Below, one piece after another: positions 37,860 to 64,000 of a DNA stretch of 64,000 nt (position 1 is the stretch's first letter; every line of letters starts with the position of its first letter). The DNA is taken from contig JAACPI010000005.1 of assembly GCA_009995545.1 (NCBI GenBank), positions 28,244 to 92,243 of the forward strand, written 5' to 3'. The DNA is from a bacterium (GTDB lineage Bacteria; Patescibacteriota; WWE3; 2-01-FULL-39-13; JAACPI01). The notes beneath the pieces were generated by a model. The model was not told where the DNA came from and did no database searches. It was given only the letters and a program-made list of their open reading frames with translations. A program made the position numbers and the translations under genes.

Positions 37860-38574
37860 AATAGCCCATCTTTACCCAAAAGAGTTAAATTTGTATGGGG
37901 ATAAAGGTAATATCTTGTATCTAACCTATTTTTTAAATCAAATTGGGATAAAAAGTGAGGTGACTGATATTGGTTTAAAAACTAATATCACCGAGGATTT
38001 TGACTTTATTTTTTCTGGAGGGGGCCCGGACTCTCTACAAAATCTAGTTTATAAAGATTTTTTAACTAAAAAAGATTTTTTAATAAAACATATAGAAATG
38101 AACAAACCCTCTGTTTTTGTTTGTGGATCTTTTCAACTACTTGGTAAATATTATTTAAATTCAAAAAACGAAAAAGTTCCTGGACTTGGTATTTTTAATT
38201 TTTATACTCAGTCCCCTTTAAATCAAAACAAGAGAATTGTTGGTAATACTTACTTTAAATTTAAAGAATCTTTTTTTGGAAATACAGTTGTCGGGTTTGA
38301 AAACCACAATGGGAGGACCTATTTAGAAGATAAACTTACACCTCTAGGAGAATCCTTTTCAAAGGATTCCGGAAACAATGATTTCGATAAAGGTGAAGGT
38401 TTACTTTATAAAAAAACTTTAGGTACCTACTTGCACGGCCCTTTATTTGTAAAAAATCCGAATATTTTAGAATTTTTGCTTAAAGATCTTTTTATAAGGC
38501 AAAAAAATCTAGATTTAAAAACTTTTTATCCCGAATTTGTCGCTCATCAAAATGTACTTAACAAAAAATTTTAA
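37837..38574 (+). CDS. gatD: glutamine amidotransferase GatD-like (CobB/CobQ-type GATase)
   Basis: FSGGGPDS nucleophile-elbow region, catalytic Cys in VFVCGSFQLLG, and a His near the C-terminus (YLHGP). Confidence 0.55.
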   Translation: MQKIKMYKIAHLYPKELNLYGDKGNILYLTYFLNQIGIKSEVTDIGLKTNITEDFDFIFSGGGPDSLQNLVYKDFLTKKDFLIKHIEMNKPSVFVCGSFQLLGKYYLNSKNEKVPGLGIFNFYTQSPLNQNKRIVGNTYFKFKESFFGNTVVGFENHNGRTYLEDKLTPLGESFSKDSGNNDFDKGEGLLYKKTLGTYLHGPLFVKNPNILEFLLKDLFIRQKNLDLKTFYPEFVAHQNVLNKKF

Positions 38575-39733: not shown

Positions 39734-41042
39734 TAAAATTACCTCAGTAGCTCTACTACTATTATCCTCATTTGTGCTTGGTGGGTGCAGTGTTTTAGGT
39801 TTTCATATCCCTTTTACTAGCAAAGATTCAGATACAGTTAAAACACCTAGCGAGCCTATTACTCTTACTTACTGGTCTTTGTTTGAGCCTTATGAGGTCT
39901 ACCAACCTTTAATTGAGGAATATCAGCAACAAAACCCTAATGTTACTATAAAATTCGAGCAGCGGAATTTTGATAACCTGTACACTTATAAAGATAGTCT
40001 TTTAGCAACTCTACAAACAGGTTCTAATAGTCCGGATATAGTGAGAATTCATGTGACTTGGCTACCTCTTTTTCAGAACAGCTTATCTCCTGCTCCCAGC
40101 AGTATAATTAGTTTTGATGAGTATTCTGCAGATTTTTATAACACAGCTGTTGAAAATACTATATTAAATGGAAAAATTTATGCTGTTCCCTTAATGTTCG
40201 ATTCCTTATCCTTATTTTATAACAAGGATATTTTTGCTCAGAAAAATTTAAATCCACCAACTACTTGGTCAGACTTTTTAGATACCTCCGTAAATTTAAC
40301 TGTTTCTAATTCCGGTCAAATATCTCAGTCGGGGGCTGCTTTTGGTTCTGCAGAAAATGTAGCATTTTTTTCGGATATAATCGGTTTGTTGTTACGACAG
40401 AGTAATATACAGCTTCCTAAAGACTTTAAATCACCAGCATTTAGAGACACTATTTTATTTTATACAAACTTTGTTAAGGAGTCTGGTGTTTGGAATCGAG
40501 AGCAAGCCTACTCACCTTTAGCTTTTTCTCAAGGGCGTACTGCTATGATGTTTGGAACTAGTTGGTCTCTTTTAGATATTTTACAAAAGACACCTAACCT
40601 AAAAGTTGGTGTTGCGCCAGTTCCTCAAGTTGTTTCTGACTCTAAACTTACAGAAATAAATTACTCTACTTATTGGGTAGAAAGCGTAGCTAGCTCCTCT
40701 AAAAATAAAGAAGAATCCTGGAAATTTATAAAATGGTTATCTCAGCCCGAGCAATTGCGAAAAGTTTATTCTAAGGCTTCTGATACTAGAACCTTTGGAG
40801 AGCCTTATCCTAGAGTATCTATGCAAGGTGAGTTAGTTAGCAACCCTTACCTTTCACCCTTTTTCGTTTACGCTCAAAATTCAGATACTATGCCTATTTC
40901 GGATAGATCCGGAAACAATAATTATGTGGATATTTTTAAAAATATTGTTGAGGGAGTGTTAAATGGCGGAGACCTAGATTCTTTAATAGATACTGCCGAA
41001 AAAGAATATAACCGGGTCTCTGGTTTTGTTCCTACCAACTAA
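39726..41042 (+). CDS. ABC-transporter extracellular solute-binding lipoprotein (family 1, sugar-type)
   Basis: Lipobox LGGC at residues 18-21; the mature domain has SBP_bac_1-like segments (IYAVPLMFDSLSLFYNKDIF). Confidence 0.55.
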   Translation: MPNKITSVALLLLSSFVLGGCSVLGFHIPFTSKDSDTVKTPSEPITLTYWSLFEPYEVYQPLIEEYQQQNPNVTIKFEQRNFDNLYTYKDSLLATLQTGSNSPDIVRIHVTWLPLFQNSLSPAPSSIISFDEYSADFYNTAVENTILNGKIYAVPLMFDSLSLFYNKDIFAQKNLNPPTTWSDFLDTSVNLTVSNSGQISQSGAAFGSAENVAFFSDIIGLLLRQSNIQLPKDFKSPAFRDTILFYTNFVKESGVWNREQAYSPLAFSQGRTAMMFGTSWSLLDILQKTPNLKVGVAPVPQVVSDSKLTEINYSTYWVESVASSSKNKEESWKFIKWLSQPEQLRKVYSKASDTRTFGEPYPRVSMQGELVSNPYLSPFFVYAQNSDTMPISDRSGNNNYVDIFKNIVEGVLNGGDLDSLIDTAEKEYNRVSGFVPTN

Positions 41043-42376: not shown

Positions 42377-44650
42377 ATGGAAAAAATATATAACCACAAA
42401 GAAATAGAAAATAAAATGTATCAACTTTGGGAAGAAAAAAATGCTTTTTCTCCTGAGAAAGTTATTAAACTTCGAAACCCAAAAAACATAGGTGAGCCTT
42501 ATTCTATTTTAATGCCCCCTCCAAACGCCAATGCCCCCCTGCACTGCGGTCACGCTACCTACGCCATTCAAGACTTAATGGCTAGGTTTAAACGTATGCA
42601 AGGTTTTGATGTTTGCTATTTTCCAGGCACTGACCATGCTGGTTTTGAAACCCAGTATGTTTATGAAAACAAGTTAAAAAAAGAGGGCAAAAGTAGGTTT
42701 GATTACGACCGTCAAACTCTTTACAGTTTGGTTTTAAATTTTGTTAAATTAAACAGTGATTTGGCTATAAACCAACTTAAAAAAATCGGAATAAGTGCCG
42801 ACTGGAGGAGAAATACTTTCATGCTTGATAAGAAGGTAGTAGATAGGGTTTATAAAACTTTTATCAAAATGCATAAAGAGGGGCTAATTTACAGAGACGG
42901 CTATATGGTAAACTACTCGACTTTTTATGGTACCACTTTTAGTGATCTAGAAACGGAATACAAGGACTCAGTTTCTCCTTTATATTATATAAAATACTCA
43001 GTTAAAGGCACCGAGGAATCTATAACAGTAGCTACAGTAAGACCGGAAACTATTTATGCTGACGTAGCTATAGCAGTAAATCCTAAGGATAATAGATATA
43101 AAAAGTATGTTGATAAGGTTGTTATTAATCCCTTAAACGGACGAGAAATGCCTATTATCCAAGATGAGTATGTAGATATTGATTTTGGAACAGGGGCTCT
43201 AAAAATTACTCCCGGGCACGATATAAACGATTACAAGATAGGTAAAAAACATAATTTAGAGATTATTTCTTTAATAGATTTAGACGGTAAGTTAAATGAA
43301 TTAGCAAAAGATTGTGCGGGTCTTTACCCCAACCAGGCCAGAGTTAAGTCTGTGGAGATTTTAAAGAAAAAGGGGGCACTTGCTAAAGTAGATGAAGCTT
43401 ATGAAAATAGGGTGCTTATAGACTATAAAGATGGAAGACCTATCGAACCTATGATACTTCCCAATTGGTTTATAAATATGGAACAACTTTCAGAGGCGGC
43501 TATAAAATCGGTTGAAAACGAGGATATAAAGTTTAATAAAAAACTTTGGAAGAACGAAATCTTACGGTGGTTAAAAGAAAAAAAACCCTGGCCAATAAGT
43601 AGACAAACTATATTTGGTATAAGCATACCTGTTTGGTACCCTATTGAAGATAACGATAATCTACAAGTAACCTTTATTAACTCAAAAGGTGAGTCTAAGT
43701 TTGGAAGCATTAAATCTTTATTATCTATTTACAACTTAAAAGAAATAGAAGATGGGTTGCAAAAGGTAATTGTTCCTGCCAACGCAAAATATGTAGTTTC
43801 TGTAGATAAACCTGGTGATGGAAAACAATATTTACCTGAAACAGACACCTTTGATACCTGGTTTAGTAGTGGCCAGTGGCCTTTTACCACAACAGGGTTT
43901 CCAGATTCTAGTGATTTTAAAAAGTATTTTCCTACAAGTTTTATGGACTCTATGTGGGATATTATGTTTTTTTGGATAGCTAGAATGTTAATGTTTAGTC
44001 TCTATCTAACAAAAGATAGCAAAAAGGGTTCTCAAGTTCCTTTTAAAAATGTTTATTTTCACGGTGCAATCGCAGATAAGAGTGGTAAAAAAATGAGCAA
44101 GAGTAAGGGAAATACTATTGATCCTTTAGAATTTGTAGAAAAGTACGGAGCAGATGCTCTGCGTATGGGGATTTTAGTTGGTGGTAACACTGCTTCTAGG
44201 TACTCTCCTTTAGATGAAGACAAAGTTAGGGGGTATCGAAATTTTGCAAATAAAATTTGGAATGTAGCTAGGTTTATACAAATTAGCGAAGAAAATGCGG
44301 CTGTCCCATTTGGGATAGAGTTAACAGATAAAACTTTAAGATCGGAAGATATTAAAATACTTACTGATTGTAGTGCCCTTGTAGAGTCTGTAACTTCAAA
44401 ATTGAATAAGTATAACTTTAAGCTTGCCGGGGAGGAAATTTATGAGTTTATCTGGAATAGACTAGCAAATCAGTATTTAGAAGAAATTAAAGATCGAAAG
44501 GATATAACTGCAAAAAGAACGCTAAAAGAAGTATTTAGTATTTGTCTAAAATTACTTCATCCTTTTATGCCTTTTGTAACTGAGGCAGCTTGGCAAGAAT
44601 TAAAACAAAAGGGGGATTTAGATTTAATAGTTTCTAATTGGCCCAACTAA
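42377..44650 (+). CDS. valS: valine--tRNA ligase (short form)
   Basis: HIGH region PPPNANAPLHCGHA followed by FPGTDHAGFETQ (ValRS-type) and KMSKSKGN. At 757 aa it is shorter than canonical ValRS. Confidence 0.6.
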   Translation: MEKIYNHKEIENKMYQLWEEKNAFSPEKVIKLRNPKNIGEPYSILMPPPNANAPLHCGHATYAIQDLMARFKRMQGFDVCYFPGTDHAGFETQYVYENKLKKEGKSRFDYDRQTLYSLVLNFVKLNSDLAINQLKKIGISADWRRNTFMLDKKVVDRVYKTFIKMHKEGLIYRDGYMVNYSTFYGTTFSDLETEYKDSVSPLYYIKYSVKGTEESITVATVRPETIYADVAIAVNPKDNRYKKYVDKVVINPLNGREMPIIQDEYVDIDFGTGALKITPGHDINDYKIGKKHNLEIISLIDLDGKLNELAKDCAGLYPNQARVKSVEILKKKGALAKVDEAYENRVLIDYKDGRPIEPMILPNWFINMEQLSEAAIKSVENEDIKFNKKLWKNEILRWLKEKKPWPISRQTIFGISIPVWYPIEDNDNLQVTFINSKGESKFGSIKSLLSIYNLKEIEDGLQKVIVPANAKYVVSVDKPGDGKQYLPETDTFDTWFSSGQWPFTTTGFPDSSDFKKYFPTSFMDSMWDIMFFWIARMLMFSLYLTKDSKKGSQVPFKNVYFHGAIADKSGKKMSKSKGNTIDPLEFVEKYGADALRMGILVGGNTASRYSPLDEDKVRGYRNFANKIWNVARFIQISEENAAVPFGIELTDKTLRSEDIKILTDCSALVESVTSKLNKYNFKLAGEEIYEFIWNRLANQYLEEIKDRKDITAKRTLKEVFSICLKLLHPFMPFVTEAAWQELKQKGDLDLIVSNWPN

Positions 44651-51087: not shown

Positions 51088-52596
51088 CTAATTTCCCACA
51101 AAAACAATATTTTTCTCTCGAAGGTTAAAGGTTTTGGTTATGTTTACACTTTCTACAAAGTATCTGTCGTGGCTTACTAAAATTAATGTTCCTTTGTATT
51201 CATTTAAGCTTTCTTCAATAACCTCTTTAGTTGAAATATCTAAATGGTTAGTAGGCTCATCTAATATTAAAACGTCGTAGTCGTTAACAGAAAATATAGC
51301 AAAAACAAACCTAGCTCTCTGTCCGGGGCTTAAATCACCAACTCTTTTGTATTCAACGTCTTCTTTGTTAAATAAAAACTTTCCAAGTAAGCTGTATACC
51401 TGGCCTATTTCTGCAACAGTTGAGTTTTCAAAAACAGCGTCTTTTAATAAACTTTTGTAGTTTAAAAAACTAGATTTTTGAGCAAAATAACCTACCTTTA
51501 AGTTTGGTCCGACGGTAACTGTCCCTTTTGTTAGCTCTAATGGGTCTTTTTCGCCCCCAATATTTGTATATTGATTATTGGTTTGCTTAAATGCCGTGTT
51601 TATTATTTTTACTAAAGTGCTTTTACCCGTACCATTTTGTCCATAAATCCAAATTCTATCTTTTCCTCTAATTTCTAAATTTAAATCGTTAAATACAGTT
51701 ACATTTTCAAACTTTTTTTGTCCCTTTTGTATACTTACTACTAACTTCCCGGCGTGAATTTGGGTGTCAAATTCTACAGTTTTCATTTTTTCCTCTATAT
51801 ATTCTTCTTTTTTATCTTTAGTTATTTCTCTTTCAAAGCGTTTTTTAGCTGCCCTTACAGCCTTTCCTCTCTTTGTTCCTGCTTTTATTTTAGCTACATT
51901 AACAATCAAATTTTCTAACTGGGTCTTTTTTCTTAGAAATCTCGTGTATTCCTCATTCCATTTACCAATAAGCTTTAGCTTTTGTTCTTTGTAATTATCA
52001 TAATCTCCTACAAAAGATATAATTTTACCTTTTTCTATTTCCCAAACAGAGTCTACAGTATTATTTAAAAATTGCCTGTCGTGGCTAATCATAACCACAC
52101 TGATATCCAGGTTTTTAATATATTTTTCAAACCACATTATTCCCTCTATATCTAAATGGTTAGTGGGTTCATCAATTAGTAGGGTAGTGGGGTCTTTTAA
52201 AAGTTGCTCAATCATTACTAATTTCATTTTTTGCCCTTCACTTAAAGTTCCTATTCTTTGATACTCGTCGTAGTTATTAAATTCTAATTTTTGTAATAGT
52301 GCTTCAACTTTGTAAAATTCCCACTCCTCCTCTAGCAAATCTAATAAAAAAGTTCCCACCATCTGATTAGGGTCTAGTCTGAATTCCTGGGGAATATAAC
52401 CTATTTTTTCATTTTCTAAAGTCACTCGGCCTTCCGTAGGGGATTCTTCCCCAATAAGTATTTTAAACAGAGTAGTTTTTCCACACCCGTTAGCACCAAC
52501 TAAGGCTATTTTTTTATTTCTCGGCAACACAAAATCTATACCATTTAAAACAATGTTGCCGTTGTATATTTTTATTAAACCACTTGCTTTTATCAT
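51088..52596 (-). CDS. ABC-F family ATPase (ribosome-associated translation factor type)
   Basis: Two ABC cassettes: Walker A GANGCGKTT with signature LSEGQKMKL, and Walker A GQNGTGKST with signature LSPGQRARF. No TM domain. Confidence 0.8.
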   Translation of the reverse strand: MIKASGLIKIYNGNIVLNGIDFVLPRNKKIALVGANGCGKTTLFKILIGEESPTEGRVTLENEKIGYIPQEFRLDPNQMVGTFLLDLLEEEWEFYKVEALLQKLEFNNYDEYQRIGTLSEGQKMKLVMIEQLLKDPTTLLIDEPTNHLDIEGIMWFEKYIKNLDISVVMISHDRQFLNNTVDSVWEIEKGKIISFVGDYDNYKEQKLKLIGKWNEEYTRFLRKKTQLENLIVNVAKIKAGTKRGKAVRAAKKRFEREITKDKKEEYIEEKMKTVEFDTQIHAGKLVVSIQKGQKKFENVTVFNDLNLEIRGKDRIWIYGQNGTGKSTLVKIINTAFKQTNNQYTNIGGEKDPLELTKGTVTVGPNLKVGYFAQKSSFLNYKSLLKDAVFENSTVAEIGQVYSLLGKFLFNKEDVEYKRVGDLSPGQRARFVFAIFSVNDYDVLILDEPTNHLDISTKEVIEESLNEYKGTLILVSHDRYFVESVNITKTFNLREKNIVFVGN

Positions 52597-52758: not shown

Positions 52759-53391
52759 TCATTTTAAGATCTCCAGCAGGGATTTTAGGATACCACTGTC
52801 TACTTCTAAGCGATCTTTAGCACTGATCTCCGTGGAATATATATAATTATTGCCTACCTTTACTTTTGTTATTGCCCTTAGAGGATAATTACCTACCTTT
52901 TCTACCCCCCTTGGCTTGCTAACCAACTTTGCACGGATAACTGACTCTTTGCTTTTAATCCCCGCCTTATCTATGTAAGCATGGCCATATCTAAATAAAA
53001 TATCAATTTCCCCACCATACTTTTTAGCAAGGCTGGAGTAAAATTTTATCGCCGTTGCGTTATTGAATTTTCCGTATCTATTTATCACAGGTGATTTTAT
53101 AGATAATCCTGAATTGTCCTCTTTAGAAACATTTCCACAAAAGTCTAAAACATCATCTTGAGTTAGTACTGCGATACTTTTTCCTAATTTAGCCCAATAA
53201 TACCGTGCCTTTTCTTCGGCAATTTCTTTTGGACTGAATCCTGTTTCCTTTGGCGCTATTATTTTTTCAGGTATATCTGCAAGAGATAAAATTTCATAAT
53301 TTAGATCTTTTAGTAGTCTCTTTATTTTGGCATACTTATTTTCATTTTTTGTAGCGAAAATAATCTTTTTTTTATTACAGGACATAATCAT
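52759..53391 (-). CDS. Ham1/RdgB-like non-canonical NTP pyrophosphatase (divergent)
   Basis: N-terminus KIIFATKNENKYAKIKRLL...ETGFSPKEIAEEKA follows the ITPase pattern (ATxNxxKxxE...ETG.TF.ENA). The C-terminal half is divergent. Confidence 0.4.
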   Translation of the reverse strand: MIMSCNKKKIIFATKNENKYAKIKRLLKDLNYEILSLADIPEKIIAPKETGFSPKEIAEEKARYYWAKLGKSIAVLTQDDVLDFCGNVSKEDNSGLSIKSPVINRYGKFNNATAIKFYSSLAKKYGGEIDILFRYGHAYIDKAGIKSKESVIRAKLVSKPRGVEKVGNYPLRAITKVKVGNNYIYSTEISAKDRLEVDSGILKSLLEILK

Positions 53392-53531: not shown

Positions 53532-55256
53532 CTAAGATTTACGGTAGTCCTCAACCCGAACTTCTGGCAATCTTAAACCTATATTAAAACCCATTTCTTC
53601 CCTCTCGGATAGTCTCGGATCGTGGGATACAATTATTAAAGTACCTGTGTAATCTTCTAGAGCCTCGACTAGTAAATCTATATCTGCATTAGAAAAATCC
53701 CCAATTGGCTCGTCTAGTATAAGCAAATTGGGTTTGTCTAGCATTAATTTAGCCATATAAAGCTTCACTTTTTGGCTTCTGCTCAAATGTTCTTTAGTGA
53801 CCTCATAAGGAGTGGAACCTACAAATCCCCAGTACGCTAAAATTGCTGCAGCGTGTTTTTCACTTATACCGGGTCTGTCTTTTATCATCTCTCTAATTAA
53901 AAGGTCATCTCCCAGGGCCTCCTCAGCTCCCGGAGTGTAAAAACCAATGTCAACATTTGTTCCAAATCCAATCTCTCCGGCGTCTGGGAGATTTTCACGA
54001 TTATCTCTTTTTGCTATCATTCTTAAGAGAGTACTCTTACCTGTTCCATTAGGGCCGTAAATATATAACCTATCTCCTCTTTGAACCTGTAGTTCTAACT
54101 TTGATAAATCAACGTGAACAGTGCCTGCATCCGTTTCAAAAAGTTTTTCCACACCGCTAATTTTAACTACATTATCCCCACTTCTTCTTCCTGCTTCAAA
54201 GAACCTGTTCCTTGTATAGTCGTTTTCGTCTAAAAGATCCTGACCAGGGTGATTGTCTAATTGTTCCCCAATCCTTTCAGCACGTCTTTCCATCACCTTC
54301 ACATTCCTCATCATGTCTTTACTTCTTTTAGCCATAGGCCTAAGTTTCGCAGCAGTTCTCTCCAACCTTTCCTTGTCTCTACTTAGATTAGTCGCCTCTC
54401 TTCTCCACTGACTAGTGACTTCAGCTACTTTTGTTAAAAAGTTCTTATAACCTCCATCTGCGCTAAATACCCTCCCAGTACTCGTTATCCCACAAGTTCT
54501 ATTGGCACACGCTGTTAAAAATAGTTCGTCTCCCGTGGCAACCAAATAACCTCGTTTATCGTCATTTTTAATGTATTCAGCCAACCAGGCGGTAGACTCC
54601 CTATCTAAAAAAGCTGTAGGCTCATCTAATACTACTAATTCTGCTTTTTTATTAAAGAGAGTGGCCCCAATTAGTACGCGTTGCAGTTGGCCACTACTTA
54701 ATTGATATAGTTTTCTTGTAAGCGGAATGTCTGAAATTCTTAAACCATCTAAAATTCTCAGCATTTCACTCTCAGCTGTATATGCCCCAAGTGTTTCGAG
54801 CTCGCGGGTTATTTCTTCTACTCGAGCTGTTGCCTCTGAATTTTCTAGCCATCCATCAGACAAATAAATTTCCTCTAGTTCGTGTTGGAGAGAAGGCAGC
54901 GCTGTTCTTCCCACACAAAAATCTAGTATGGATACGTCTCTGTTTTGGTCTCTAACTTTTTCTATATCTTGGGGTAAATAATCAATCACATCTTGCCCTA
55001 CAAGTATATGGCAATCTCCCGAATCTGGTTTTCTTAATCCACAGGCAACTTCGATAAGACTAGTTTTACCCGAGCCACTTTCTCCAGTTACCGCCGTACA
55101 AGATCCTTGCTGCACGAGAACTTCCCCAGCAAAAAATAGATTGTCTCTACCATCTAATGAGCGTAAAGTTAAGTCATGGGAATTTATAAATGTTTTTCCA
55201 GTAATAGGCAATCGTTCGTCCATTTTATTTGAGTATAAATATAATAATGAGAACAT
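53532..55256 (-). CDS. second ABC-F family ATPase with long inter-domain linker, atypically GC-rich
   Basis: Cassette 1: Walker A GESGSGKTS with signature LSSGQLQRV. Cassette 2: Walker A GPNGTGKST with signature LSRSQKVKL. The ~70-aa basic linker QWRREATNLSRDKERLERTAAKLRPMAKRSKDMMRNVKVMERRAERIGEQL resembles the ARD/PtIM of antibiotic-resistance ABC-Fs. Codon usage is visibly GC-richer than in neighbours. Confidence 0.75.
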   Translation of the reverse strand: MFSLLYLYSNKMDERLPITGKTFINSHDLTLRSLDGRDNLFFAGEVLVQQGSCTAVTGESGSGKTSLIEVACGLRKPDSGDCHILVGQDVIDYLPQDIEKVRDQNRDVSILDFCVGRTALPSLQHELEEIYLSDGWLENSEATARVEEITRELETLGAYTAESEMLRILDGLRISDIPLTRKLYQLSSGQLQRVLIGATLFNKKAELVVLDEPTAFLDRESTAWLAEYIKNDDKRGYLVATGDELFLTACANRTCGITSTGRVFSADGGYKNFLTKVAEVTSQWRREATNLSRDKERLERTAAKLRPMAKRSKDMMRNVKVMERRAERIGEQLDNHPGQDLLDENDYTRNRFFEAGRRSGDNVVKISGVEKLFETDAGTVHVDLSKLELQVQRGDRLYIYGPNGTGKSTLLRMIAKRDNRENLPDAGEIGFGTNVDIGFYTPGAEEALGDDLLIREMIKDRPGISEKHAAAILAYWGFVGSTPYEVTKEHLSRSQKVKLYMAKLMLDKPNLLILDEPIGDFSNADIDLLVEALEDYTGTLIIVSHDPRLSEREEMGFNIGLRLPEVRVEDYRKS

Positions 55257-55393
55257 TATACTATAAGTCTATAATATAGCAATGATAAAGTTTGTAAAAA
55301 AGTCATCATACCTTTAAATCCTTTAAGGATAACAAATTAATTGTTGACATATTCGATATGTATGTACTACTATAGGTATATTAAAGTTTATTT

Positions 55394-55801
55394 TTGCAAA
55401 TGAAAAAATATATATTTTTGGCGGGCCCAATGAGAGGAGTACCTAGGGAGCAGTCTTTAGGGTACAGAGAAGAAGCTACAAGACTTCTTGAGGAGAATTT
55501 TAGAGTACTTCATGCTATGAGAGGCAGAGAGCTAAAAGAAACGATGCCGGATCCAAAAGGGGCTGTTATTCGGGATAAGATGGATATTGATCAAGCTGAT
55601 ATAGTTTTAGTAAACGATTCCTATACAAATGTAAGTAATATTGGTACTGCAATGGAAATAATGTATTCTTGGGAAAGAGGCAAGGCAGTAATTATTTTTG
55701 GAGAAGAACATTTGCATGACTACTGGATGAACTTTCACAGTCATTTAAGATTTAAAAATTTGGAGGAGGCGTGTCATTTTATAAATAAAATGTTTAAGTA
55801 A
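55394..55801 (+). CDS. nucleoside 2-deoxyribosyltransferase-like protein
   Basis: YIFLAGPMRG N-terminus and 135-aa flavodoxin-like size match the Nuc_deoxyrib_tr family pattern. Confidence 0.4.
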   Translation: MQMKKYIFLAGPMRGVPREQSLGYREEATRLLEENFRVLHAMRGRELKETMPDPKGAVIRDKMDIDQADIVLVNDSYTNVSNIGTAMEIMYSWERGKAVIIFGEEHLHDYWMNFHSHLRFKNLEEACHFINKMFK

Positions 55802-55814
55802 TAGTTATTTAATT

Positions 55815-56828
55815 ATGCAAAAGTTTCATAATATTAGCGGCCTGAAGAACTTGGCCAAAGAGCTAAAAGGTAACGAAAATATTTATTTAGGCATAAGGCC
55901 GTACGGTTTTCATTCTGGAAACGCATTGGTACTGTACGTGTACCCTCTCTTGTTGATGAAAGAGATGAAAAAGCTGGGTATTGAGCCGAAACTCAACTTT
56001 TTTGTTTTCATAAATGATTATGAGCAGGCCAAGCTAGATGGGCCAGACTTACTTAATCGCCCATTTAATGTCCACCCTAAATGCACTACACTTCAACAAA
56101 AAATGTGTGTTGAGTTTCCAGACATCCCCTTGGTAGATTATTGGCAAAGGGTAATAGAGTTTTATGTTAAGTTATTGTTGAACACTTTCCCAAAAATTAA
56201 TATAAAATTCGTGAGAAATTCTGAAATGAAAAATTACGATGTATTTAAATCTGCCTTGATTAAAACGATAAAGAATCCTGAGGAATTAGCCAAAATTTTT
56301 AAAAAATACTCTAAATGGAAAGTGCCTAGTCAATATGCTCTCTATGCTTCCGCTGTTTGTCCTAAATGTAGGATGGCTAGGGGATTTACCGAGATTACTT
56401 CTAAAGGCAATGTTACCTTTCAGTGTTCAGTGTGTGGATCAAAACATCTTAGTCACTACGAGGATTTTGATTATTGGTTTTACCACAAACCTTTAGCCGT
56501 TCCCAGAATAGAGTCTTTTAAGATCGATTTATGTATTACTGGATCTGATCATCACGAGGAGGGAGATTTCGAGATAAGGAAGGCGTTAATGGACTACTTT
56601 AATGCAAAGGTACCCTACCCCAAAACACTATATACACCTACTGTTTTCTTAGGGGGTAGAAAAATGGGTAAGAGCAAAGGAAATGCCTATACTATTAAAA
56701 TGAGTAGATTAGAGAAAGTTGCTTCTAAGGTTGATGTAGACTTTTTACACCTAGATGGGGAAGTTAAAAGGGATAAATTTTTACAATACATAAACAATGG
56801 TTACAATAAAAATGATGGAAAACAGTAA
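55815..56828 (+). CDS. class I aminoacyl-tRNA-synthetase-like paralog (TrpRS/TyrRS-like core) with inserted C4 zinc ribbon
   Basis: HIGH-like IYLGIRPYGFHSGNALV near the N-terminus and KMSKS-like GGRKMGKSKGN near residue 290. CPKC...CSVC is inserted between them. At 337 aa there is no anticodon-binding domain to speak of. Confidence 0.45.
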   Translation: MQKFHNISGLKNLAKELKGNENIYLGIRPYGFHSGNALVLYVYPLLLMKEMKKLGIEPKLNFFVFINDYEQAKLDGPDLLNRPFNVHPKCTTLQQKMCVEFPDIPLVDYWQRVIEFYVKLLLNTFPKINIKFVRNSEMKNYDVFKSALIKTIKNPEELAKIFKKYSKWKVPSQYALYASAVCPKCRMARGFTEITSKGNVTFQCSVCGSKHLSHYEDFDYWFYHKPLAVPRIESFKIDLCITGSDHHEEGDFEIRKALMDYFNAKVPYPKTLYTPTVFLGGRKMGKSKGNAYTIKMSRLEKVASKVDVDFLHLDGEVKRDKFLQYINNGYNKNDGKQ

Positions 56829-57933
56829 AACCTTTGTTTTTTTTTCTAACCCTTTTGGGTTTGGAACGGTAGGGACAATGCTTGCAGTTTTAGAGGAATT
56901 TCTAGAAAACGGGGAGAAAAGAATTATATACGTTGCGGATGAGACTACTTTGGAGCCTTTTGGGAGTAATCGGGGGGTAAAAATTATTAGATCCGATCAA
57001 CGAGATTTAGACAAAATAAAAGAAATCTTGAAAAACATAAAAAACCCAGTTGTGATTTCTTCACAGAATAGGTTCGCCTTAAAAGCGGCAAAAGATCTGC
57101 AGATTCCAAACGCATTTATTGATACTTTAACCTGGTTCTGGGAGGCTATACCCGAGTGGTATTACGACGCAGATTTATATTTTACCCATAATATGCCTAA
57201 AACTAAATCCAAGATAAAGATTTTAAAAAAAGCATACGTAGTACCGGGAATTTTTGGAGAGGGGCTGCCTAGTGTAAGTAAAAAAAGTGATTTAGTAATG
57301 TATGTTGGAGGCAGTGTAAATCCTTTAGTCAAAGGTATTCCTAAAGACTATCTTAGCCTGCTGTGTTTAGCCTTAGATAGATTAGGTAGCTGTGGAGAAA
57401 GAATTACCGTTTTTTCTGATAAAGCATCAGTAAAATTCATGGGTAAAACGATAAAGAATCCCTTAGTGAGGATTGAAAATTTACCAAGAAAAGAATTTTT
57501 AGATAGGGTAAATAAGTCGAAATCTTTTTGTGCTACAGGCGGTTTGACTGCGACAATGGAGTCCTTTAAGCTGGGAACTTATGTTTCCTTCCTCCCTTCT
57601 ACAAACCTTAGTCAATTGGGGTTAAAAGACTTACTCGTAAACAGGGGAGTTATCAAAAATTCTTTTGAGAGAGACGAAGTTTCTAGTAAGTTTAGTATAC
57701 CTAAAAAAATTTCCGAAAAAGAAGCAATATCTAGATTCAGAGAGATGGATAGGGAAATACTTCAAAACGACCAATACAGGAAGAGCTTTGTCGAAAAATT
57801 AGAGGATTTAATTAAAAATTCCTTTAAAATAGATAGCAATGTTCTTAATTCGCAGACTGACTTTATTACCCGTGTTGGTACTAGCGGTGCTAAAGAAATA
57901 TACGGAATTTTAAAAAAAGAGTGGGGCTTTTAG
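56797..57933 (+). CDS. GT-B fold protein, MurG/PseG (GT28)-like
   Basis: C-terminal domain motif FCATGGLTATMESFKLGTYVSFLPSTNLSQ resembles the GT1/GT28 donor-binding motif (HGGxGTxxEa...P....DQ). Confidence 0.4.
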   Translation: MVTIKMMENSKTFVFFSNPFGFGTVGTMLAVLEEFLENGEKRIIYVADETTLEPFGSNRGVKIIRSDQRDLDKIKEILKNIKNPVVISSQNRFALKAAKDLQIPNAFIDTLTWFWEAIPEWYYDADLYFTHNMPKTKSKIKILKKAYVVPGIFGEGLPSVSKKSDLVMYVGGSVNPLVKGIPKDYLSLLCLALDRLGSCGERITVFSDKASVKFMGKTIKNPLVRIENLPRKEFLDRVNKSKSFCATGGLTATMESFKLGTYVSFLPSTNLSQLGLKDLLVNRGVIKNSFERDEVSSKFSIPKKISEKEAISRFREMDREILQNDQYRKSFVEKLEDLIKNSFKIDSNVLNSQTDFITRVGTSGAKEIYGILKKEWGF

Positions 57934-59147: not shown

Positions 59148-60035
59148 TTATAGGCAATTAAAAGGTTTAATAATCCACATACTTTCAGTTTCTTCAGACC
59201 TGTCTTTTTCCATCTCTGTAAGTAGTTCTTCGCAGATCTTTTCACCAGAACCGGACCCCGTAAATATTATGTCTATTTTTTTAGTGGTTTCTTGGCTTAT
59301 AGTTTTTTTGGCAAGTTCGTAAATATTGTACTCGGGCATTTTTAGCACAAATATTTCTCCACCCTTCATAGTTACTGCCGCGGTAATTACTAGGGACACA
59401 GCGTCTTTTATTTCCATAAAAAATCTTTTCATCCTCTTGTCTGTAACCGTCACAGGCCCGCCCAACTTTATTTGCTGTCTCCACTTAGGTAAAAGGGATC
59501 CTCTAGAGTTTAAAACGTTACCAAATCTAACAACAGCAACCTTGGTATTACATTGGGGGTTATTGATGGAGTATTTTATTAACAAGTGTTCCATTATAAG
59601 CTTTGTTGAACCCATGACAGATGTAGGATTTACTGCCTTGTCTGTAGATATCGCTATAACTTTGGGAACATTATTCACAGAACAGGCATTAATAATGTTT
59701 AGGGCACCGATCACATTAGTTTTTATAGCTTCCTCCGGGTTTTTTTCTGCGAAATAAACGTGCTTTATAGCGGCTGCATGGAATACAATGTCGATATTTT
59801 TAGTAACCCGTTCTAACTTTTCGTAATCTCTCACATCTCCCAGGCAGTATCTGATATTTATTTTGGGAAAATCTCTATCCATTTCCTGCTTTAACAAAAA
59901 ATGTTTATATTCATCTCTAGCATAAGCAGTTATCTGCATAGGTCCCATTGAAGCTAGTTGTTTTACTAATTGCGTACCAATAGACCCTGTCCCCCCAGTT
60001 ACTAATATTTGTTTGTTCGTAATTAAATTTTTCAT
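59148..60035 (-). CDS. UDP-GlcNAc 4,6-dehydratase-like short-chain dehydrogenase (PseB/CapD/FlaA1 family)
   Basis: ILVTGGTGSIG Rossmann motif, ARDEYK, GDVRD, FHAAAIKHV and STDKAVNPTSVMGSTK (catalytic K) follow the PseB/CapD pattern. Confidence 0.65.
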   Translation of the reverse strand: MKNLITNKQILVTGGTGSIGTQLVKQLASMGPMQITAYARDEYKHFLLKQEMDRDFPKINIRYCLGDVRDYEKLERVTKNIDIVFHAAAIKHVYFAEKNPEEAIKTNVIGALNIINACSVNNVPKVIAISTDKAVNPTSVMGSTKLIMEHLLIKYSINNPQCNTKVAVVRFGNVLNSRGSLLPKWRQQIKLGGPVTVTDKRMKRFFMEIKDAVSLVITAAVTMKGGEIFVLKMPEYNIYELAKKTISQETTKKIDIIFTGSGSGEKICEELLTEMEKDRSEETESMWIIKPFNCL

Positions 60036-61141
60036 AATAAACTCTTCAAGGTATTAGTGATCTCCACGATGTCCTTTTCCTTTAATCCTATATAAAAAGG
60101 CAGTGCTAGGGTTTTAGCAGAAATTTTTTCACATATTGGGAAGTCACCTTTTTTGTATCCAAACTTTTTTTTCATAAAAGGCTGTAAATGTATAGATGGT
60201 AGATAGGGTTTAGAGTGTATCCCTCTCTCTGATAGTTCTACAATAAGGTTATTTCTAATATTTTTTGGAACTTGTATAACATAGACAAACCAAGAATATT
60301 TACCATCTTTGCAGGATAGTGGGGGAGTAGTAATGTTTTGAGTACCCTCCAAATATTTATTATAGTAACCCGCTATTCTAGCCTTCTCAAAGTTCATCCA
60401 TTCAAATTTGTCCATCTGAGTGCTGCCAAGAGAAGCACTCATATCATCCATCCTATAGTTATAGCCAAGTCTAGAGTGTTTTAGCCATTGCATATTTATC
60501 CCTCTACCTTGATTTTTTAAACTGTCAATTAAGTTTTTACGGTCTCTATTATTTGTAATTACTATGCCTCCTTCTCCTGTGGTAATTTGTTTATTTGGAT
60601 AAAAGGCGATTACTCCAAAATCCCCTAATGTTCCTACATGTCTATTTTTATAATATGTTCCCAAACTTTCACACGCATCTTCGATAACCTTTAAATTATA
60701 CTTTTTGGCTATTTTCTGAATTTCGTCAATTTTAGCTGGTCTGCCAAAAATGTGGACAACTAGTATCGCCCTGGTCTTTTTTGTAATAGCTTTTTCTATC
60801 TTAGAAACGTCTATATTAAAATCTATGGGATCCACGTCGACAAATACAGGTATTGCTTTTTCAAATAGGATTGCATTACTGGAGGCTATGAAAGAAAAGG
60901 GTGTAGTTATTACTTCCTCTCCTTCTCTAATGTTTAAAGCTTTTAGTGCTAAATGCAGCCCAGCAGTACCGCTTGAAACTGTAGAAGCATATTTAGCTCC
61001 TGTGTACTTACACATCTTCTCTTCAAAAAGTTTGCTTTTGGGTCCCATACCTAGAATTCCAGAATTCAAAACATCGATTACCCCATCTATATCTTTCTTA
61101 TCTAAGTAAGGTTTAGCTAGTGGGTAATTAAATTTCGTCAT
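60032..61141 (-). CDS. DegT/DnrJ/EryC1/StrS-family PLP-dependent sugar aminotransferase
   Basis: GTLGDFGVIAFYPNKQITTGEGGIVITN contains the PLP-lysine region typical of DegT enzymes. Confidence 0.75.
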   Translation of the reverse strand: MTKFNYPLAKPYLDKKDIDGVIDVLNSGILGMGPKSKLFEEKMCKYTGAKYASTVSSGTAGLHLALKALNIREGEEVITTPFSFIASSNAILFEKAIPVFVDVDPIDFNIDVSKIEKAITKKTRAILVVHIFGRPAKIDEIQKIAKKYNLKVIEDACESLGTYYKNRHVGTLGDFGVIAFYPNKQITTGEGGIVITNNRDRKNLIDSLKNQGRGINMQWLKHSRLGYNYRMDDMSASLGSTQMDKFEWMNFEKARIAGYYNKYLEGTQNITTPPLSCKDGKYSWFVYVIQVPKNIRNNLIVELSERGIHSKPYLPSIHLQPFMKKKFGYKKGDFPICEKISAKTLALPFYIGLKEKDIVEITNTLKSLL

Positions 61142-61811
61142 AAGACTTAACTAATTTAAAACTTTCGGCATATTTATAGCCAGATTCCAGCCCTCTATAT
61201 TTAGCGAAAACCTCAATCCCCTCTAAACTTCTAGGGTGGGGGTACCTTCGGATTTCGGTTTCATACAAAGAGAACGATCTTTTTTTATCTTCAATATACT
61301 TTTCTATATTTATATAGGTGTTTGGTTTAAAGGAATTATGTAATGACCATTCCGAGGAGGAAGGTACCTCATATTCAAAAATCTTGGATAGATATTTTTT
61401 TCCGGGTCTAGATATTACTTCTAAGGAACGGTTAACTATACTGTGGTCTAAATTTACATCGGTGTTCGTATGGGTAAAAACTATGTTTGGTTGTAGGGTT
61501 TTAAAAACATCCTCTATAACCTTGTTTAAATCTACATGGTCAACCTTTTCTAATCTCATGTCTGGCTGGTCTAAAAAAATAACTTCTTTAACCCCGAGAA
61601 CCTTGTTAGCCGCCCTACACTCATCTATTTTTTTGCTGTATTTTATAGTATCTCCCGCATATTGAGCTGTAGAACCTTCTGTAACTATGCAAACAAAAAC
61701 TTCATTTTCGTTTTCAGAAAGTAATTTCATAGTGCCTCCACACCCCAGGATCTCGTCGTCGGGATGTGCCGCAACTACTAGTATTTTTTGTTTAGAAAAC
61801 ATCTTTTTCAT
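61128..61811 (-). CDS. PIG-L/LmbE-family N-acetyl-sugar deacetylase
   Basis: Zinc-binding motif VVAAHPDDEILGCGG at the N-terminus. Confidence 0.7.
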   Translation of the reverse strand: MKKMFSKQKILVVAAHPDDEILGCGGTMKLLSENENEVFVCIVTEGSTAQYAGDTIKYSKKIDECRAANKVLGVKEVIFLDQPDMRLEKVDHVDLNKVIEDVFKTLQPNIVFTHTNTDVNLDHSIVNRSLEVISRPGKKYLSKIFEYEVPSSSEWSLHNSFKPNTYINIEKYIEDKKRSFSLYETEIRRYPHPRSLEGIEVFAKYRGLESGYKYAESFKLVKSYDEI

Positions 61812-62745
61812 TTAATTGGTGCCCTTGTTTGAAAGCTTTAGTTATATCCACTTCTAACCCATCACTAAAGATTTTTGACAAGTATAGTAATTTATTATTA
61901 GAAACAATCCCTAAATGTTTTTTGCTAACGCTAACTATCTGGCCATTTCTACCAGAGAAAAAAGGAACATTGTCTTTTATCACTACAGATTTAAATGTAT
62001 ACTTTTGGTCCTCATAAAAAAAGTATGCAAGTGGGTATATATCTGTAACGGCTCTAACCTGGTTTAGTATATGTTGTGAGTCTTTATTAAAGTTAACATA
62101 ACTATCCCTGGGTTCCCTCTTTAATAAATATGTAGCATTTTTTGAATACTGTGGTTTTGCATATTCTTTTGCGGTGCCAGAAGAGATATCGTCAAAGTAC
62201 TTTAAAAATAGTTCAGCCCCAAACTTTGATATCTTTTCGTAATAGGATGAGGCATTGTCCTCCGGTTCTATTTTGAATTTTTTTTGGGTTATGATCGGTC
62301 CATCATCAACCTCGGCGTTTAAATAGAAGATGGTTATACCCCCGTATTCTTCATTGTTAATAAAATGCCAAGGTATTGGAGCCCTCCCCCTATTTTTAGG
62401 GAGTAGTGCTGGGTGTGAACCAACGCATCCCTTCTTAGAGCTTTGAAGTATTTCCTTGGTCAGAATCTGAGACCAACCATTTACGATCAGTATGTTTGGT
62501 CTTTCTTCTATAAACTGGTTTTTCAGGCTGTTTATATTTTTAGTATATATGACTTTAAGGCAATATTCTTTAGCTAGGGGTGTAAAGTCAGTATAGTCGG
62601 ATATTTCCCCAGAACCCTCTTTAGGGCGGGTTATCACCACGTCCACTTTTTTGCGATGCTTTAATAAACTCTCTAATGCAAGATACCCATCCTTTGTCAT
62701 AGATAAATATACATTTTTGTCTTTAAGAGATGTACAATTGATCAT
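61792..62745 (-). CDS. sugar N-formyltransferase (Fmt/ArnA-N-like)
   Basis: HPALLPKNRG and the downstream Asp (GITIFYLNAEVDDGPII) match the formyl-transferase catalytic SLLP/His/Asp triad region. Confidence 0.6.
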   Translation of the reverse strand: MINCTSLKDKNVYLSMTKDGYLALESLLKHRKKVDVVITRPKEGSGEISDYTDFTPLAKEYCLKVIYTKNINSLKNQFIEERPNILIVNGWSQILTKEILQSSKKGCVGSHPALLPKNRGRAPIPWHFINNEEYGGITIFYLNAEVDDGPIITQKKFKIEPEDNASSYYEKISKFGAELFLKYFDDISSGTAKEYAKPQYSKNATYLLKREPRDSYVNFNKDSQHILNQVRAVTDIYPLAYFFYEDQKYTFKSVVIKDNVPFFSGRNGQIVSVSKKHLGIVSNNKLLYLSKIFSDGLEVDITKAFKQGHQLNEKDVF

Positions 62746-62821: not shown

Positions 62822-63559
62822 ATGAAAACAAAATCACAAGAATTATACGACAGTTTTGCACCGTACTACAGAAATTATTCAAAAAAGAAGCATTGTTATT
62901 TGGATTCTGTGGATAGTCTAGTTGTTGAAGAGATACGTAGTTTTTCCAAAACGGGGATTAAATGGCTAGATGTAGGGACGGGAGATGGTGTAAGAATAAA
63001 AGAACTACTAAAAAGGCTACCTAAAAAGAGTTGTAAAGTAGATCTGGTAGAGAATAGTGTAGAAATGGCTAAAACCTGTGAAGAGAACTTTAAGAAGCCC
63101 CATTTATTGGATATTTCCTCATCCGACTTGGCCGGGATCGATAGTAGTTACGATGTAATAACCTGTTTATGGAATGTATTTGGGCACATAGACCCGGAAG
63201 TTAACAGGGCTAGTGCATTAAAGAATCTAGCATCCCTGCTGGGGCCAACTGGGAAGATACTTATAGACGTAAGTAACAGATATAACCTAGAAAATTATGG
63301 AGAGAGTAATTTTACAGCCAACATAGAGGAGGATATTAAAAGTCCCAGTCCTAAAAATGGCGATATTTATTACCCTATTTCAGTAAGTGGTAAAACAATC
63401 GATTCTTTTTGTCATTTTTTTAGCCCCTTTGAGATAAAGGAACTTTTTTTAAAGGTGAATTTAAAAATAAAAAAGGAATTGTACATAAACTACGATACAG
63501 GTAAACTGGAAAAAACTTGGTTGAGAGGGCACTTATTCTTTGTACTGCAGCGGGGATAA
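62822..63559 (+). CDS. class I SAM-dependent methyltransferase
   Basis: Motif I WLDVGTGDGVRIKEL; divergent from the sugar genes. Confidence 0.55.
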   Translation: MKTKSQELYDSFAPYYRNYSKKKHCYLDSVDSLVVEEIRSFSKTGIKWLDVGTGDGVRIKELLKRLPKKSCKVDLVENSVEMAKTCEENFKKPHLLDISSSDLAGIDSSYDVITCLWNVFGHIDPEVNRASALKNLASLLGPTGKILIDVSNRYNLENYGESNFTANIEEDIKSPSPKNGDIYYPISVSGKTIDSFCHFFSPFEIKELFLKVNLKIKKELYINYDTGKLEKTWLRGHLFFVLQRG

Positions 63560-64000
63560 GTTTTGGGAGAAGATCATAGATTATTTTCGTACCTACTCTA
63601 CTATGGAATTTTTGCATTTTAAAACAATATTGCCGTTGTATATTTTTATTAAACCACTACTTTTGTGGCTATCTAGCTACTCATTACTAGTCACTTGTTA
63701 TTACAAAACCCTTGACAAAAGTAAATCTGTCTGTTATATTAATGCCTAATTTGGGGATGTATCAGAAATCGCCTAATAGAAGCACATTAAAAAGCAAGCA
63801 GAGCAGAACTAACTCTTAAAACTTGATCAAACAATAAATGCTAATAATAAAGCTAAACTTCCTGTAGTTAACGCAAACGCTTTGGTTTTTGCCTAAACTT
63901 ACGGAAGCCTTACTCCTTCTTTTTAGCGAGGGTTTAAGATTTATATTGCTAAAATAATTTAAAAAGCCCGATTAGTGACTTTTTACTTTAAACTTAAACT

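Follow-up and report, generated by a model that had tools for sequence, protein, structure and literature searches.

What is the free-standing catalytic core of an aminoacyl-tRNA synthetase (aaRS) doing at the head of a set of sugar-modifying genes in a member of the Patescibacteria? The question is raised by a stretch of 64,000 nucleotides (nt) from contig JAACPI010000005.1 (assembly GCA_009995545.1, WWE3 lineage), the whole of which we call the window, and in particular by one of its genes, whose product we call KRSL:

55815..56828, plus strand: KRSL, a stand-alone catalytic core derived from class I lysyl-tRNA synthetase (LysRS-I), 337 amino acids (aa), ATG start

KRSL derives from LysRS-I, not from TrpRS, TyrRS or CysRS, and to judge from its sequence it is not itself a LysRS. 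On balance we think that it is a ligase for amino acids which uses ATP but no tRNA and which serves a hexosyl-nucleoside pathway of the blasticidin/gougerotin kind. An earlier reading of the DNA letters alone (the original prediction) had called it a non-canonical aaRS paralogue embedded in an amino-sugar pathway, and this description stands, a housekeeping synthetase being very unlikely.

The reading frame is exactly the one proposed, and the class I catalytic core that the original prediction saw in it is borne out by a match to Pfam family PF01921 (53.7 bits) and by the invariance of its two signature motifs. The HIGH-like motif, FHSGN, lies at aa 32–36 (nt 55908–55922) and the KMSKS-like motif, KMGKSKG, at aa 283–289 (nt 56661–56681); a Cys4 zinc ribbon is made up of CPKC at aa 182–185 and CSVC at aa 204–207 (nt 56358–56435). 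In an alignment of 25 KRSL family members that are 37–49% identical to the window protein, the four cysteines and H33, G35, N36, M284, K286, S287 and N290 are invariant, as are residues in the blocks INDWEQ (N67, D68, E70, Q71), RNS (N135, S136) and WxYHK (W221, Y223, H224, K225), together with D251 and R255, while D245, H246 and E249 of a DHxxEGD block are nearly so. A wider alignment, which adds archaeal metagenome-assembled genomes (MAGs) and organisms of 68–73% G+C content (GC) and spans 30–73% GC, keeps H33, G35, N36, N67, D68, E70, the four cysteines, W221, D245, K286, S287 and N290. Because they persist through both alignments, these motifs are functional signatures and not chance strings, and the active site is under selection. 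The ATP-binding motifs, HxGN and (K)M/I-x-K-S, are retained, and so is the GxDH block.

The parentage of KRSL lies outside the families with which the original prediction proposed to compare it (TrpRS, TyrRS, CysRS, MshC and GluQRS). PF01921, the class I LysRS family, matches over aa 122–321 (hmmscan) with a gathering score of 27 to be compared with its 53.7 bits, whereas PF00579, on which a TrpRS/TyrRS origin would depend, reaches 14.5 bits against a gathering cutoff of 21.1. No MshC, CysRS, GluQRS or GluRS model of NCBIfam is matched at E≤1, nor is PF01406, so that a CysRS/MshC origin and membership of the GluQRS/GluRS group were rejected as well. When the KRSL family was aligned with genuine LysRS-I proteins of 535–539 aa (hhalign; 99.2% probability, E 1.2e-19), aa 14–295 of KRSL fell onto positions 17–294 of 539 in LysRS-I, and the HxGN motifs, both CxxC pairs, a conserved Trp (W221), GxDH and the KMSKS loop were paired. 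An AlphaFold2 (AF2) model of KRSL (pLDDT 90.9, pTM 0.89) has as its best Foldseek match 1IRX, the only LysRS-I structure (E 9e-12, TM 0.61), followed by GluRS, CysRS and TyrRS folds in that order, with CysRS at about 1e-6. A sequence search of the PDB with KRSL or its family profile gives no significant aaRS match, so the kinship with LysRS-I is seen only by profile-profile and fold methods.

The same alignment settles the nature of the CxxC...CxxC element, which had been taken for an insertion. The element is present, but the four cysteines align with C185, C188, C208 and C211 of LysRS-I, and since genuine LysRS-I carries the same invariant Cys4 the zinc ribbon is inherited from that enzyme and is not a novelty of KRSL.

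Two observations indicate that KRSL is nonetheless not a LysRS. Its score on TIGR00467 (lysS_arch) is 25 bits, far under the equivalog cutoff of 147.55, and in the hhalign alignment both the 'RE' that follows HIGN in LysRS-I and the 'WDDYD' block are substituted. The Glu of this 'RE' is said to contact the lysine substrate in the 1IRX structure. At the residues predicted to surround the amino-acid pocket, KRSL has invariants specific to its own family instead (INDWEQ and WxYHKP). The two proteins have in common a homologous Rossmann-fold core with the HxGN motif, the position of the Cys4 ribbon, the Trp, GxDH and a KMSKS-type loop, but LysRS-I goes on into a stem-contact fold and a helical anticodon-binding domain, whereas KRSL ends just past the KMSKS loop. 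Pfam finds no Anticodon_2 domain in KRSL, although it does so in a genuine LysRS (P0225), which agrees with the expectation that no anticodon-binding domain would be present; and because the profile alignment stops at about LysRS-I position 294 of 539, the tRNA-holding C-terminal half is absent. The stem-contact domain is likewise missing, KRSL having 337 aa where a full LysRS-I has about 520–540. LysRS-I also differs in its distribution, KRSL being rare, patchy and clustered with sugar-nucleoside enzymes.

The features that surround KRSL in the window are these:

51088..52596, minus strand: ABC-F ATPase 1 (ABCF1), 502 aa, best on NCBIfam model NF000355 (371.8 bits, cutoff 380)
52759..53391, minus strand: Ham1/ITPase-like protein, 210 aa, between both ABC-F genes (Ham1p_like, E 6.7e-10, aa 10–82)
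53532..55256, minus strand: ABC-F ATPase 2 (ABCF2), 574 aa, divergent from the operon that contains KRSL
55344..55373, plus strand: weak sigma-70-like promoter match, TTGACA-18-TACTAT, in the 137-nt gap upstream of the operon
55394..55801, plus strand: protein of nucleoside deoxyribosyltransferase (NDT)/SLOG fold, 135 aa, probable ATG at 55400, 13 nt upstream of KRSL in the same operon
56797..57933, plus strand: GT-B glycosyltransferase (GT) 'CGASL', 378 aa, likely start near 56815, overlapping the KRSL stop codon
57942..59141, minus strand: GT4 glycosyltransferase, 399 aa (Glycos_transf_1, 154 bits)
59148..60035, minus strand: PseB-like UDP-HexNAc 4,6-dehydratase, 295 aa, accessory (Polysacc_synt_2, 328 bits)
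60032..61141, minus strand: DegT/PseC-like sugar aminotransferase, 369 aa, core member (DegT_DnrJ_EryC1, 378 bits)
61128..61811, minus strand: PIG-L/LmbE-type de-N-acetylase, 227 aa, accessory (PIG-L, 97.8 bits)
61792..62745, minus strand: sugar-amine or Met-tRNA-type formyltransferase, 317 aa, accessory (Formyl_trans_N and Formyl_trans_C)
62822..63559, plus strand: SAM-dependent methyltransferase, 245 aa (Methyltransf_23, E 2.8e-13)

As predicted, the NDT-like gene lies on the same strand as KRSL and close enough for the two to be transcribed together. The gene on the other side of KRSL is indeed directly adjacent, in fact overlapping, but its product, first described as GT28-like, is a GT-B protein whose closest curated family is the cytosylglucuronate (CGA) synthase. 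The block of GT4, PIG-L, DegT, PseB-like and formyltransferase genes was correctly recognised (Pfam and NCBIfam agree), except that all five lie on the minus strand and converge on the KRSL operon. Most scores against curated pathway models fall under their cutoffs: the PseB-like protein has 268 bits on TIGR03589 (PseB, cutoff 408), the DegT protein 282 bits on the PseC model (cutoff 423.5), the PIG-L protein 67 bits on its best NCBIfam model, BshB1 (cutoff 182.5), and the GT4 is best on BshA (102 bits) and MshA (89 bits), both far under cutoff. The formyltransferase reaches 134 bits on the ArnA formyltransferase model. ABCF2 is best on NF000355, 'ribosomal protection-like ABC-F' (226 bits), with the antibiotic-producer model NF000171 second, and in the Ham1/ITPase-like protein only the N-terminal 70 or so aa match the Ham1 profile. 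Promoter-consensus sites are no more numerous in the window than in shuffled sequence, no riboswitch or T-box was found upstream of the operon, and PADLOC found no known anti-phage defence among the core genes.

The company that KRSL keeps elsewhere was surveyed at 27 loci, which were retrieved by KRSL homology alone and whose open reading frames (ORFs) were all clustered without prior labels. They come from Patescibacteria, two archaeal MAGs and two high-GC organisms, and range from 30 to 73% GC; many of the contigs end early, so the following counts are lower bounds. A CGA-synthase-like GT is present at 25 of the 27 loci (26 with the locus L037, discussed below), DegT also at 25, an ABC-F gene within 10 kb of KRSL, at varying positions, at 22, the NDT-fold protein at 21 to 22, GT4 at 17, a methyltransferase at 16, an APH-type kinase at 15 (with an APH(3')-like kinase at 4 more), a BlsE-like radical SAM protein at 9 and a Fem/GNAT-like protein (Acetyltransf_6) at 5. 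The original prediction had proposed examining whether the gene adjacency is conserved, and the CGA-synthase-like, DegT and NDT-fold partners do recur; PseB (4/27), PIG-L (3/27) and the formyltransferase (3/27) are found at few loci. Between lineages the order and orientation of the genes are shuffled while membership is retained, the cluster is compact (7–12 genes), and the same operon is present in organisms of 73% and 68% GC. As membership survives this shuffling, as an APH kinase is fused to the ligase in one protein, and as the operon is found in those two high-GC organisms, the pattern indicates functional linkage and horizontal mobility, not mere synteny. The rare and patchy spread among patescibacterial, archaeal and high-GC genomes fits a horizontally mobile specialised pathway.

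Two architectures can be told apart. Type A has GT4, methyltransferase and APH; the window belongs here, with PseB, PIG-L and formyltransferase as accessories and with no APH gene at 44–64 kb. Type B has a radical SAM gene, two DegT genes, the Fem/GNAT-like protein and an APH(3')-like kinase. Ham1-like genes also occur in the L001 and L002/L003 clusters and make up a 7-locus family in the ORF clustering; the protein is possibly a house-cleaning enzyme for nucleotide analogues. Type B loci (L004, L005, L007, L009 and L037) also encode a conserved 316-aa protein without a family match, and L037 in addition holds a DUF6271 protein; both would belong to steps of the putative pathway that have yet to be assigned. 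Directly downstream of the L002 cluster (10138–10527, minus strand), and otherwise only in L003, is a gene for a 129-aa protein of the cytidine/dCMP-deaminase family, which comes close in length to resistance enzymes of the blasticidin-S deaminase type.

That the pathway concerns a nucleoside is suggested by three of the recurrent partners. The first is the glycosyltransferase. CGASL aligns over its full length with TIGR04467 (CGA synthase), at 27.4 bits where the cutoff is 300; 17 of 20 members of its family match this model first (best E 4e-22), and at L037 the gene adjoining KRSL scores 301.7 bits and so passes the equivalog cutoff. The CGASL family and the L037 CGA synthase align over 356 columns (hhalign; 99.4% probability, E 5.6e-22). 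The L037 operon further contains a radical SAM gene with BlsE as its top match, two DegT genes, a methyltransferase, a kinase/phosphatase, an ABC-F gene (a producer-type model being its second match) and a nucleotide-sugar dehydrogenase, which would supply UDP-glucuronate. The second is the radical SAM protein, which in its L004-type form scores 196.7 bits on TIGR04466 (BlsE, cytosylglucuronate decarboxylase; cutoff 400), with MoaA (92.6 bits) and viperin (88.8 bits) as the next families; the PADLOC viperin model pVip gives 100 bits against 197 for BlsE. No BlsE-type radical SAM gene was found in the window at 44–64 kb.

The third is the NDT-fold protein, the most conserved member of the cluster (48–61% identity across loci). 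Its Pfam matches are low (Nuc_deoxyrib_tr 25.2 bits, under the gathering cutoff; DUF4406 22.6 bits), but the only meaningful match of its family profile in the PDB is 4JEN, BcmB, an N-glycosidase that acts on cytidine monophosphate (CMP) (E 0.0077). In a Foldseek search with its AF2 model (pLDDT 87.4), BcmB and MilB occupy ranks 2–6 with the highest identities (19–22%), and a true deoxyribosyltransferase ranks first. It is thus a candidate nucleotide N-glycosidase that would release a free base. MilB, BlsM and BcmB are CMP N-glycosidases, and in the blasticidin S, mildiomycin and gougerotin pathways the base is taken from CMP, N-glycosylated with UDP-glucuronate, and carried through radical SAM processing and transamination. 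The KRSL cluster appears to resemble the opening steps of these pathways, in which BlsE and CGA have been described (PMC3715490).

The mechanism that we propose runs as follows. The NDT-fold enzyme would free a base from its nucleotide, as MilB, BlsM and BcmB do, and the CGA-synthase homologue would glycosylate that base with an NDP-sugar. DegT would install on the sugar the amine that KRSL acylates; its keto-sugar substrate could come from the PseB-like dehydratase in the window and elsewhere from a BlsE-like radical SAM step. In the window the PseB-like and PseC-like enzymes would make UDP-4-amino-4,6-dideoxy-HexNAc, whose amines PIG-L and the formyltransferase might remodel. KRSL itself would bind ATP and a carboxylate, most likely that of an alpha-amino acid, form an acyl-adenylate and pass the acyl group on, not to tRNA, but to the amino group of a hexose (or a hexuronate) that is N-linked to a free nucleobase. 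Use of ATP is to be expected because its HxGN and KMSKS-type motifs are intact, unlike those of the motif-less mini-family described below. GT4, the methyltransferase and, in the subclade of the window, PIG-L and the formyltransferase may decorate the product. More speculatively, this would be a blasticidin/gougerotin-like aminoacyl-aminohexosyl nucleoside aimed at the ribosome, from which the two ABC-F ATPases, together with the APH kinase and Ham1-like protein where these are present, would protect the producer. The idea that KRSL aminoacylates a sugar or other small molecule rather than tRNA, put forward in the original prediction, is still the best reading.

The self-protection genes (both ABC-F copies of the window, the APH kinase and the Ham1-like protein) plausibly have that role, although no other part of the proposal is as speculative; it is suggested because the ABC-F proteins match a ribosomal-protection-like model best and because blasticidin S and nucleosides of its type inhibit the ribosome (PMC5572114). 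Less probable than the ligase reading, and put forward tentatively, is a wider proposition: that this mobile cluster of the candidate phyla radiation (CPR), with a few archaeal MAGs and high-GC bacteria, makes a previously unknown ribosome-targeting aminoacyl-hexosyl nucleoside antibiotic, the peptide-like bond of which is formed by a new class of tRNA-independent, LysRS-I-derived ligase, dedicated ABC-F proteins and a kinase shielding the producer.

Several points weigh against the proposal. CGASL of the window, with only 27 bits on TIGR04467, could use an acceptor other than cytosine and a donor other than UDP-glucuronate, and the evidence on the NDT-fold protein, the top fold match of whose model is a true deoxyribosyltransferase, is compatible with a transferase as well as with an N-glycosidase. 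At 44–64 kb the window lacks both the BlsE-like radical SAM gene and the APH kinase. ABC-F proteins are also housekeeping translation factors, and ABCF1 falls just under its model cutoff. The Fem/GNAT-like protein of five loci could form the amide from an aminoacyl-tRNA, leaving KRSL another role, and in the window the amine installed by DegT could be the substrate of the formyltransferase instead. In the blasticidin-type pathways that have been characterised, amide bonds are, as far as is known, made by other enzyme classes, and we know of no precedent for a LysRS-I-type ligase among them. Finally, the 27 loci do not amount to independent phylogenetic samples, and many of them belong to MAGs whose labels cannot be relied on.

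Among the alternatives, the one that survives best is that KRSL is still linked to tRNA, either charging a tRNA or an acceptor stem for an aminoacyl-tRNA-dependent transferase or acting, as GluQRS does, on a modified tRNA nucleoside. We consider this unlikely. It is well established that GluQRS too is a class Ib catalytic core alone with a zinc site, and GluRS is the second-best fold family of the KRSL model; on the other hand, KRSL has no stem-contact or anticodon-binding domain with which to hold a tRNA, neither GluQRS nor other aaRS models match it at E≤1, and the 'RE' and 'WDDYD' signatures of LysRS-I are substituted. The association with ABC-F points to translation, and a Fem/GNAT-like protein at 5 of 27 loci would suit such a scheme, but the window and 22 of the 27 loci lack this partner, and the cluster has neither a tRNA gene nor a T-box associated with it. 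Within a CGA-type pathway, tRNA-dependent aminoacylation has a precedent in BlsK, which is reported to be a [3Fe-4S], Leu-tRNA-dependent transferase (PMC12710036); the analogy drawn here to KRSL is one of function only, the accessible literature being silent on its fold.

It is quite unlikely, in our view, that the cluster serves to add an amino sugar of the pseudaminic or bacillosamine type, both aminoacylated and formylated, to a glycan or glycoprotein of the cell envelope, the ABC-F genes being mere neighbours. The three accessory genes of the window (PseB, PIG-L and formyltransferase) are present at just 3–4 of the 27 loci, even though the PseB-like (268 bits) and PseC-like (282 bits) enzymes, the formyltransferase and the GT4 are together typical of surface-sugar pathways, and the recurrent families include no flippase, polyprenyl-phosphate transferase or polymerase. 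The core genes are matched by no defence model and by no model specific to biosynthetic gene clusters (BGCs), as an envelope function would have it, but such a function leaves unexplained the NDT-fold protein, the threshold-passing CGA synthase and the BlsE-like protein of sister loci, and the ABC-F linkage that persists through shuffling at 22 of 27 loci.

A very unlikely possibility is that KRSL acts as MshC does in the making of an aminoacyl-aminosugar such as a low-molecular-weight thiol, following the MshA/MshB/MshC logic of mycothiol, with which the original prediction had compared the locus, or the corresponding one of bacillithiol. MshC is an established precedent for an aaRS paralogue that joins an amino acid to a deacetylated amino sugar, but it is CysRS-like whereas KRSL is LysRS-I-like. 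The GT4 is best on BshA (102 bits) and MshA (89 bits) and the PIG-L protein on BshB1 (67 bits), and the L001 cluster has an inositol-phosphatase-like gene; the former scores are all far under equivalog cutoffs, however, and the comparison fails on the conserved composition of the loci, in that PIG-L is present at only 3 of 27 and GT4 is missing from 10, while the conserved partners are the NDT-fold protein, the CGA-synthase homologue, DegT, ABC-F and a kinase. A thiol pathway would account neither for these partners nor for the BlsE-like protein.

Highly improbable is modification of a protein, in which KRSL would aminoacylate a translation factor or other protein as EpmA/PoxA lysylates EF-P, with the GT-B protein acting like EarP. 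EpmA/PoxA, a paralogue of class II LysRS that modifies EF-P, is an established precedent, and the persistent ABC-F neighbourhood ties the cluster to the ribosome, but the GT is homologous to CGA synthase over its full length, the radical SAM protein is BlsE-like, known EF-P pathways make no use of NDT-fold, DegT, methyltransferase or kinase genes, and no efp gene recurs at the loci. That KRSL might be an unusual, short lysyl-tRNA synthetase of the organism, as its PF01921 match and the database label 'lysyl-tRNA synthetase class I' given to some members would have it, is effectively refuted by its length (337 aa against about 535) and want of tRNA-binding domains, by its 25 bits on TIGR00467 against 147.55, by its absence from all but 23 of 185,579 species genomes, and by its being always embedded in a sugar-nucleoside cluster.

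If KRSL is taken as a tRNA-independent ligase, its nearest conceptual relatives are MshC and GluQRS/YadB, which are class I aaRS cores that adenylate an amino acid and transfer it to something other than the 3' end of tRNA. The acceptor of MshC is an amino sugar, and GluQRS is a core-only enzyme with a zinc site. The concept is common to all three, but the parents differ (CysRS and GluRS as against LysRS-I), and so would the acceptor, which for KRSL would be an amine placed by DegT on a putative nucleoside and not deacetylated GlcNAc-inositol or queuosine.

As to the pathway, the enzyme set of the KRSL loci is similar to those of blasticidin S (BlsM/BlsD/BlsE/BlsH/BlsK/BlsL), mildiomycin (MilB/MilC), gougerotin and arginomycin. 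Shared features are the NDT-fold putative N-glycosidase, the CGA-synthase homologue, the BlsE-like radical SAM protein (9 loci), DegT, a methyltransferase, a putative step that adds an amino acid, genes resembling resistance genes, and a kinase or some other modifying enzyme. The differences are as follows: a LysRS-I-like ligase is not described for the CGA-type pathways in the accessible literature, the KRSL clusters have no aminomutase or ATP-grasp gene, their hosts are mostly Patescibacteria with genomes of about 1 Mb, ABC-F is a conserved companion, and the variant in the window has PseB/PseC-type sugar chemistry in place of BlsE. The ABC-F proteins of the window have the layout of the antibiotic-resistance (ARE) ABC-F proteins of the TlrC/CarA/OleB/SrmB type, with two ABC domains and a linker, and like them are sited with a putative antibiotic pathway, but they score under every curated cutoff (the best being the 371.8 bits of ABCF1). 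What appears to be new is thus an aaRS-derived putative amide ligase from a new parent lineage, in a CGA-type cluster with an ABC-F companion and in unexpected hosts.

The KRSL family is small and isolated. A word-indexed search gave 115 KRSL clusters, all of 217–369 aa and mostly from Patescibacteria, none of which bears a name more specific than 'hypothetical' or 'LysRS class I'. When 1.84 billion representative proteins were searched exhaustively with a HMMER profile, only 117 KRSL matches were obtained, and it is from this number, and from the appearance of canonical LysRS-I in the same search only at E about 5e-5, that the isolation of the family follows. Species-representative genomes with KRSL (23 of 185,579) are MAGs labelled Shapiro-, Saccharibacteria-, Staskawicz-, Beckwith- and Paceibacterota, doubtfully labelled MAGs and two archaeal MAGs; no protein from Streptomyces or a named producer is among the 117 matches. 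In the literature we found nothing relevant on the KRSL family or on nucleoside clusters in CPR bacteria.

Three fusions are known in the family. In P0118 an APH kinase is joined to KRSL, P0181 has a ligase-like N-terminus followed by an Abhydrolase_3 esterase, and in P0122 (locus L028, 8001–9575, with DegT and radical SAM/SPASM genes nearby) a 205-aa N-terminal domain precedes the ligase; a Pfam scan of this 205-aa domain gave no match, which leaves an NDT::ligase fusion unconfirmed.

Distant LysRS-I-like mini-proteins were considered as a bridge to known BGCs, and none is in a nucleoside cluster. The neighbours of P0165 are an ABC transporter and a MetE-like gene, that of P0188 is an unrelated 373-aa protein, and P0226 and P0228 have archaeal housekeeping contexts; these unrelated contexts therefore mark the boundary of the KRSL family. 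A separate LysRS-I-like mini-family of about 300 aa (P0189, P0210 and P0192; loci L029, 10001–10930, L032, 8990–9892, and L033) has lost both HIGH and KMSKS but retains the Cys4 ribbon, and its genes lie divergently beside the glycine-cleavage genes gcvT-gcvH-gcvP in independent contigs. This mini-family may be a derivative that has lost catalysis or adenylation.

If the ligase reading is right, KRSL would be the first repurposed class I LysRS core to be assigned a function, and LysRS-I would become the third parent lineage, after CysRS (MshC) and GluRS (GluQRS), from which class I cores have been recruited to non-tRNA acylation. The findings point to a conserved, probably bioactive nucleoside pathway in the Patescibacteria, which most descriptions credit with hardly any secondary metabolism and whose interactions with their hosts are poorly understood. 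Such a product could serve these episymbionts, with their genomes of about 1 Mb, as a chemical weapon or as a tool for manipulating the host, and the linked ABC-F proteins would then be candidate resistance determinants against inhibitors of the peptidyl-transferase centre. As the cluster is compact and the ligase is small and modelled with high confidence, the hypothesis is directly testable.

The remaining observations concern the wider window. Directly after the methyltransferase gene is a truncated match to a tmRNA gene (ssrA; 63753–64000, plus strand; RF00023, 23.6 bits, E 3e-6) that is cut by the end of the window. Genes for tmRNA are common integration sites of genomic islands, and this match may mark one edge of a mobile region. 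A dnaA gene is present at 34975–36390 (plus strand; Bac_DnaA, E 8e-60) and is adjoined by the stretch of lowest GC in the window (36000–40000, 27–29% GC), which together probably represent the chromosomal origin; the gene cluster sits about 20 kb from it. A full-length class Ia aaRS of 757 aa is encoded at 42377–44650 (plus strand), with tRNA-synt_1, Anticodon_1 and editing-domain matches, from which it follows that the normal synthetases of this genome keep their anticodon-binding domains. At positions 29486–31615 (plus), 17836–21405 (plus) and 11268–13169 (minus) are a TraG/VirB4-like P-loop ATPase of the type IV secretion or conjugation type and two very large ORFs (1189 and 633 aa) without a Pfam match.

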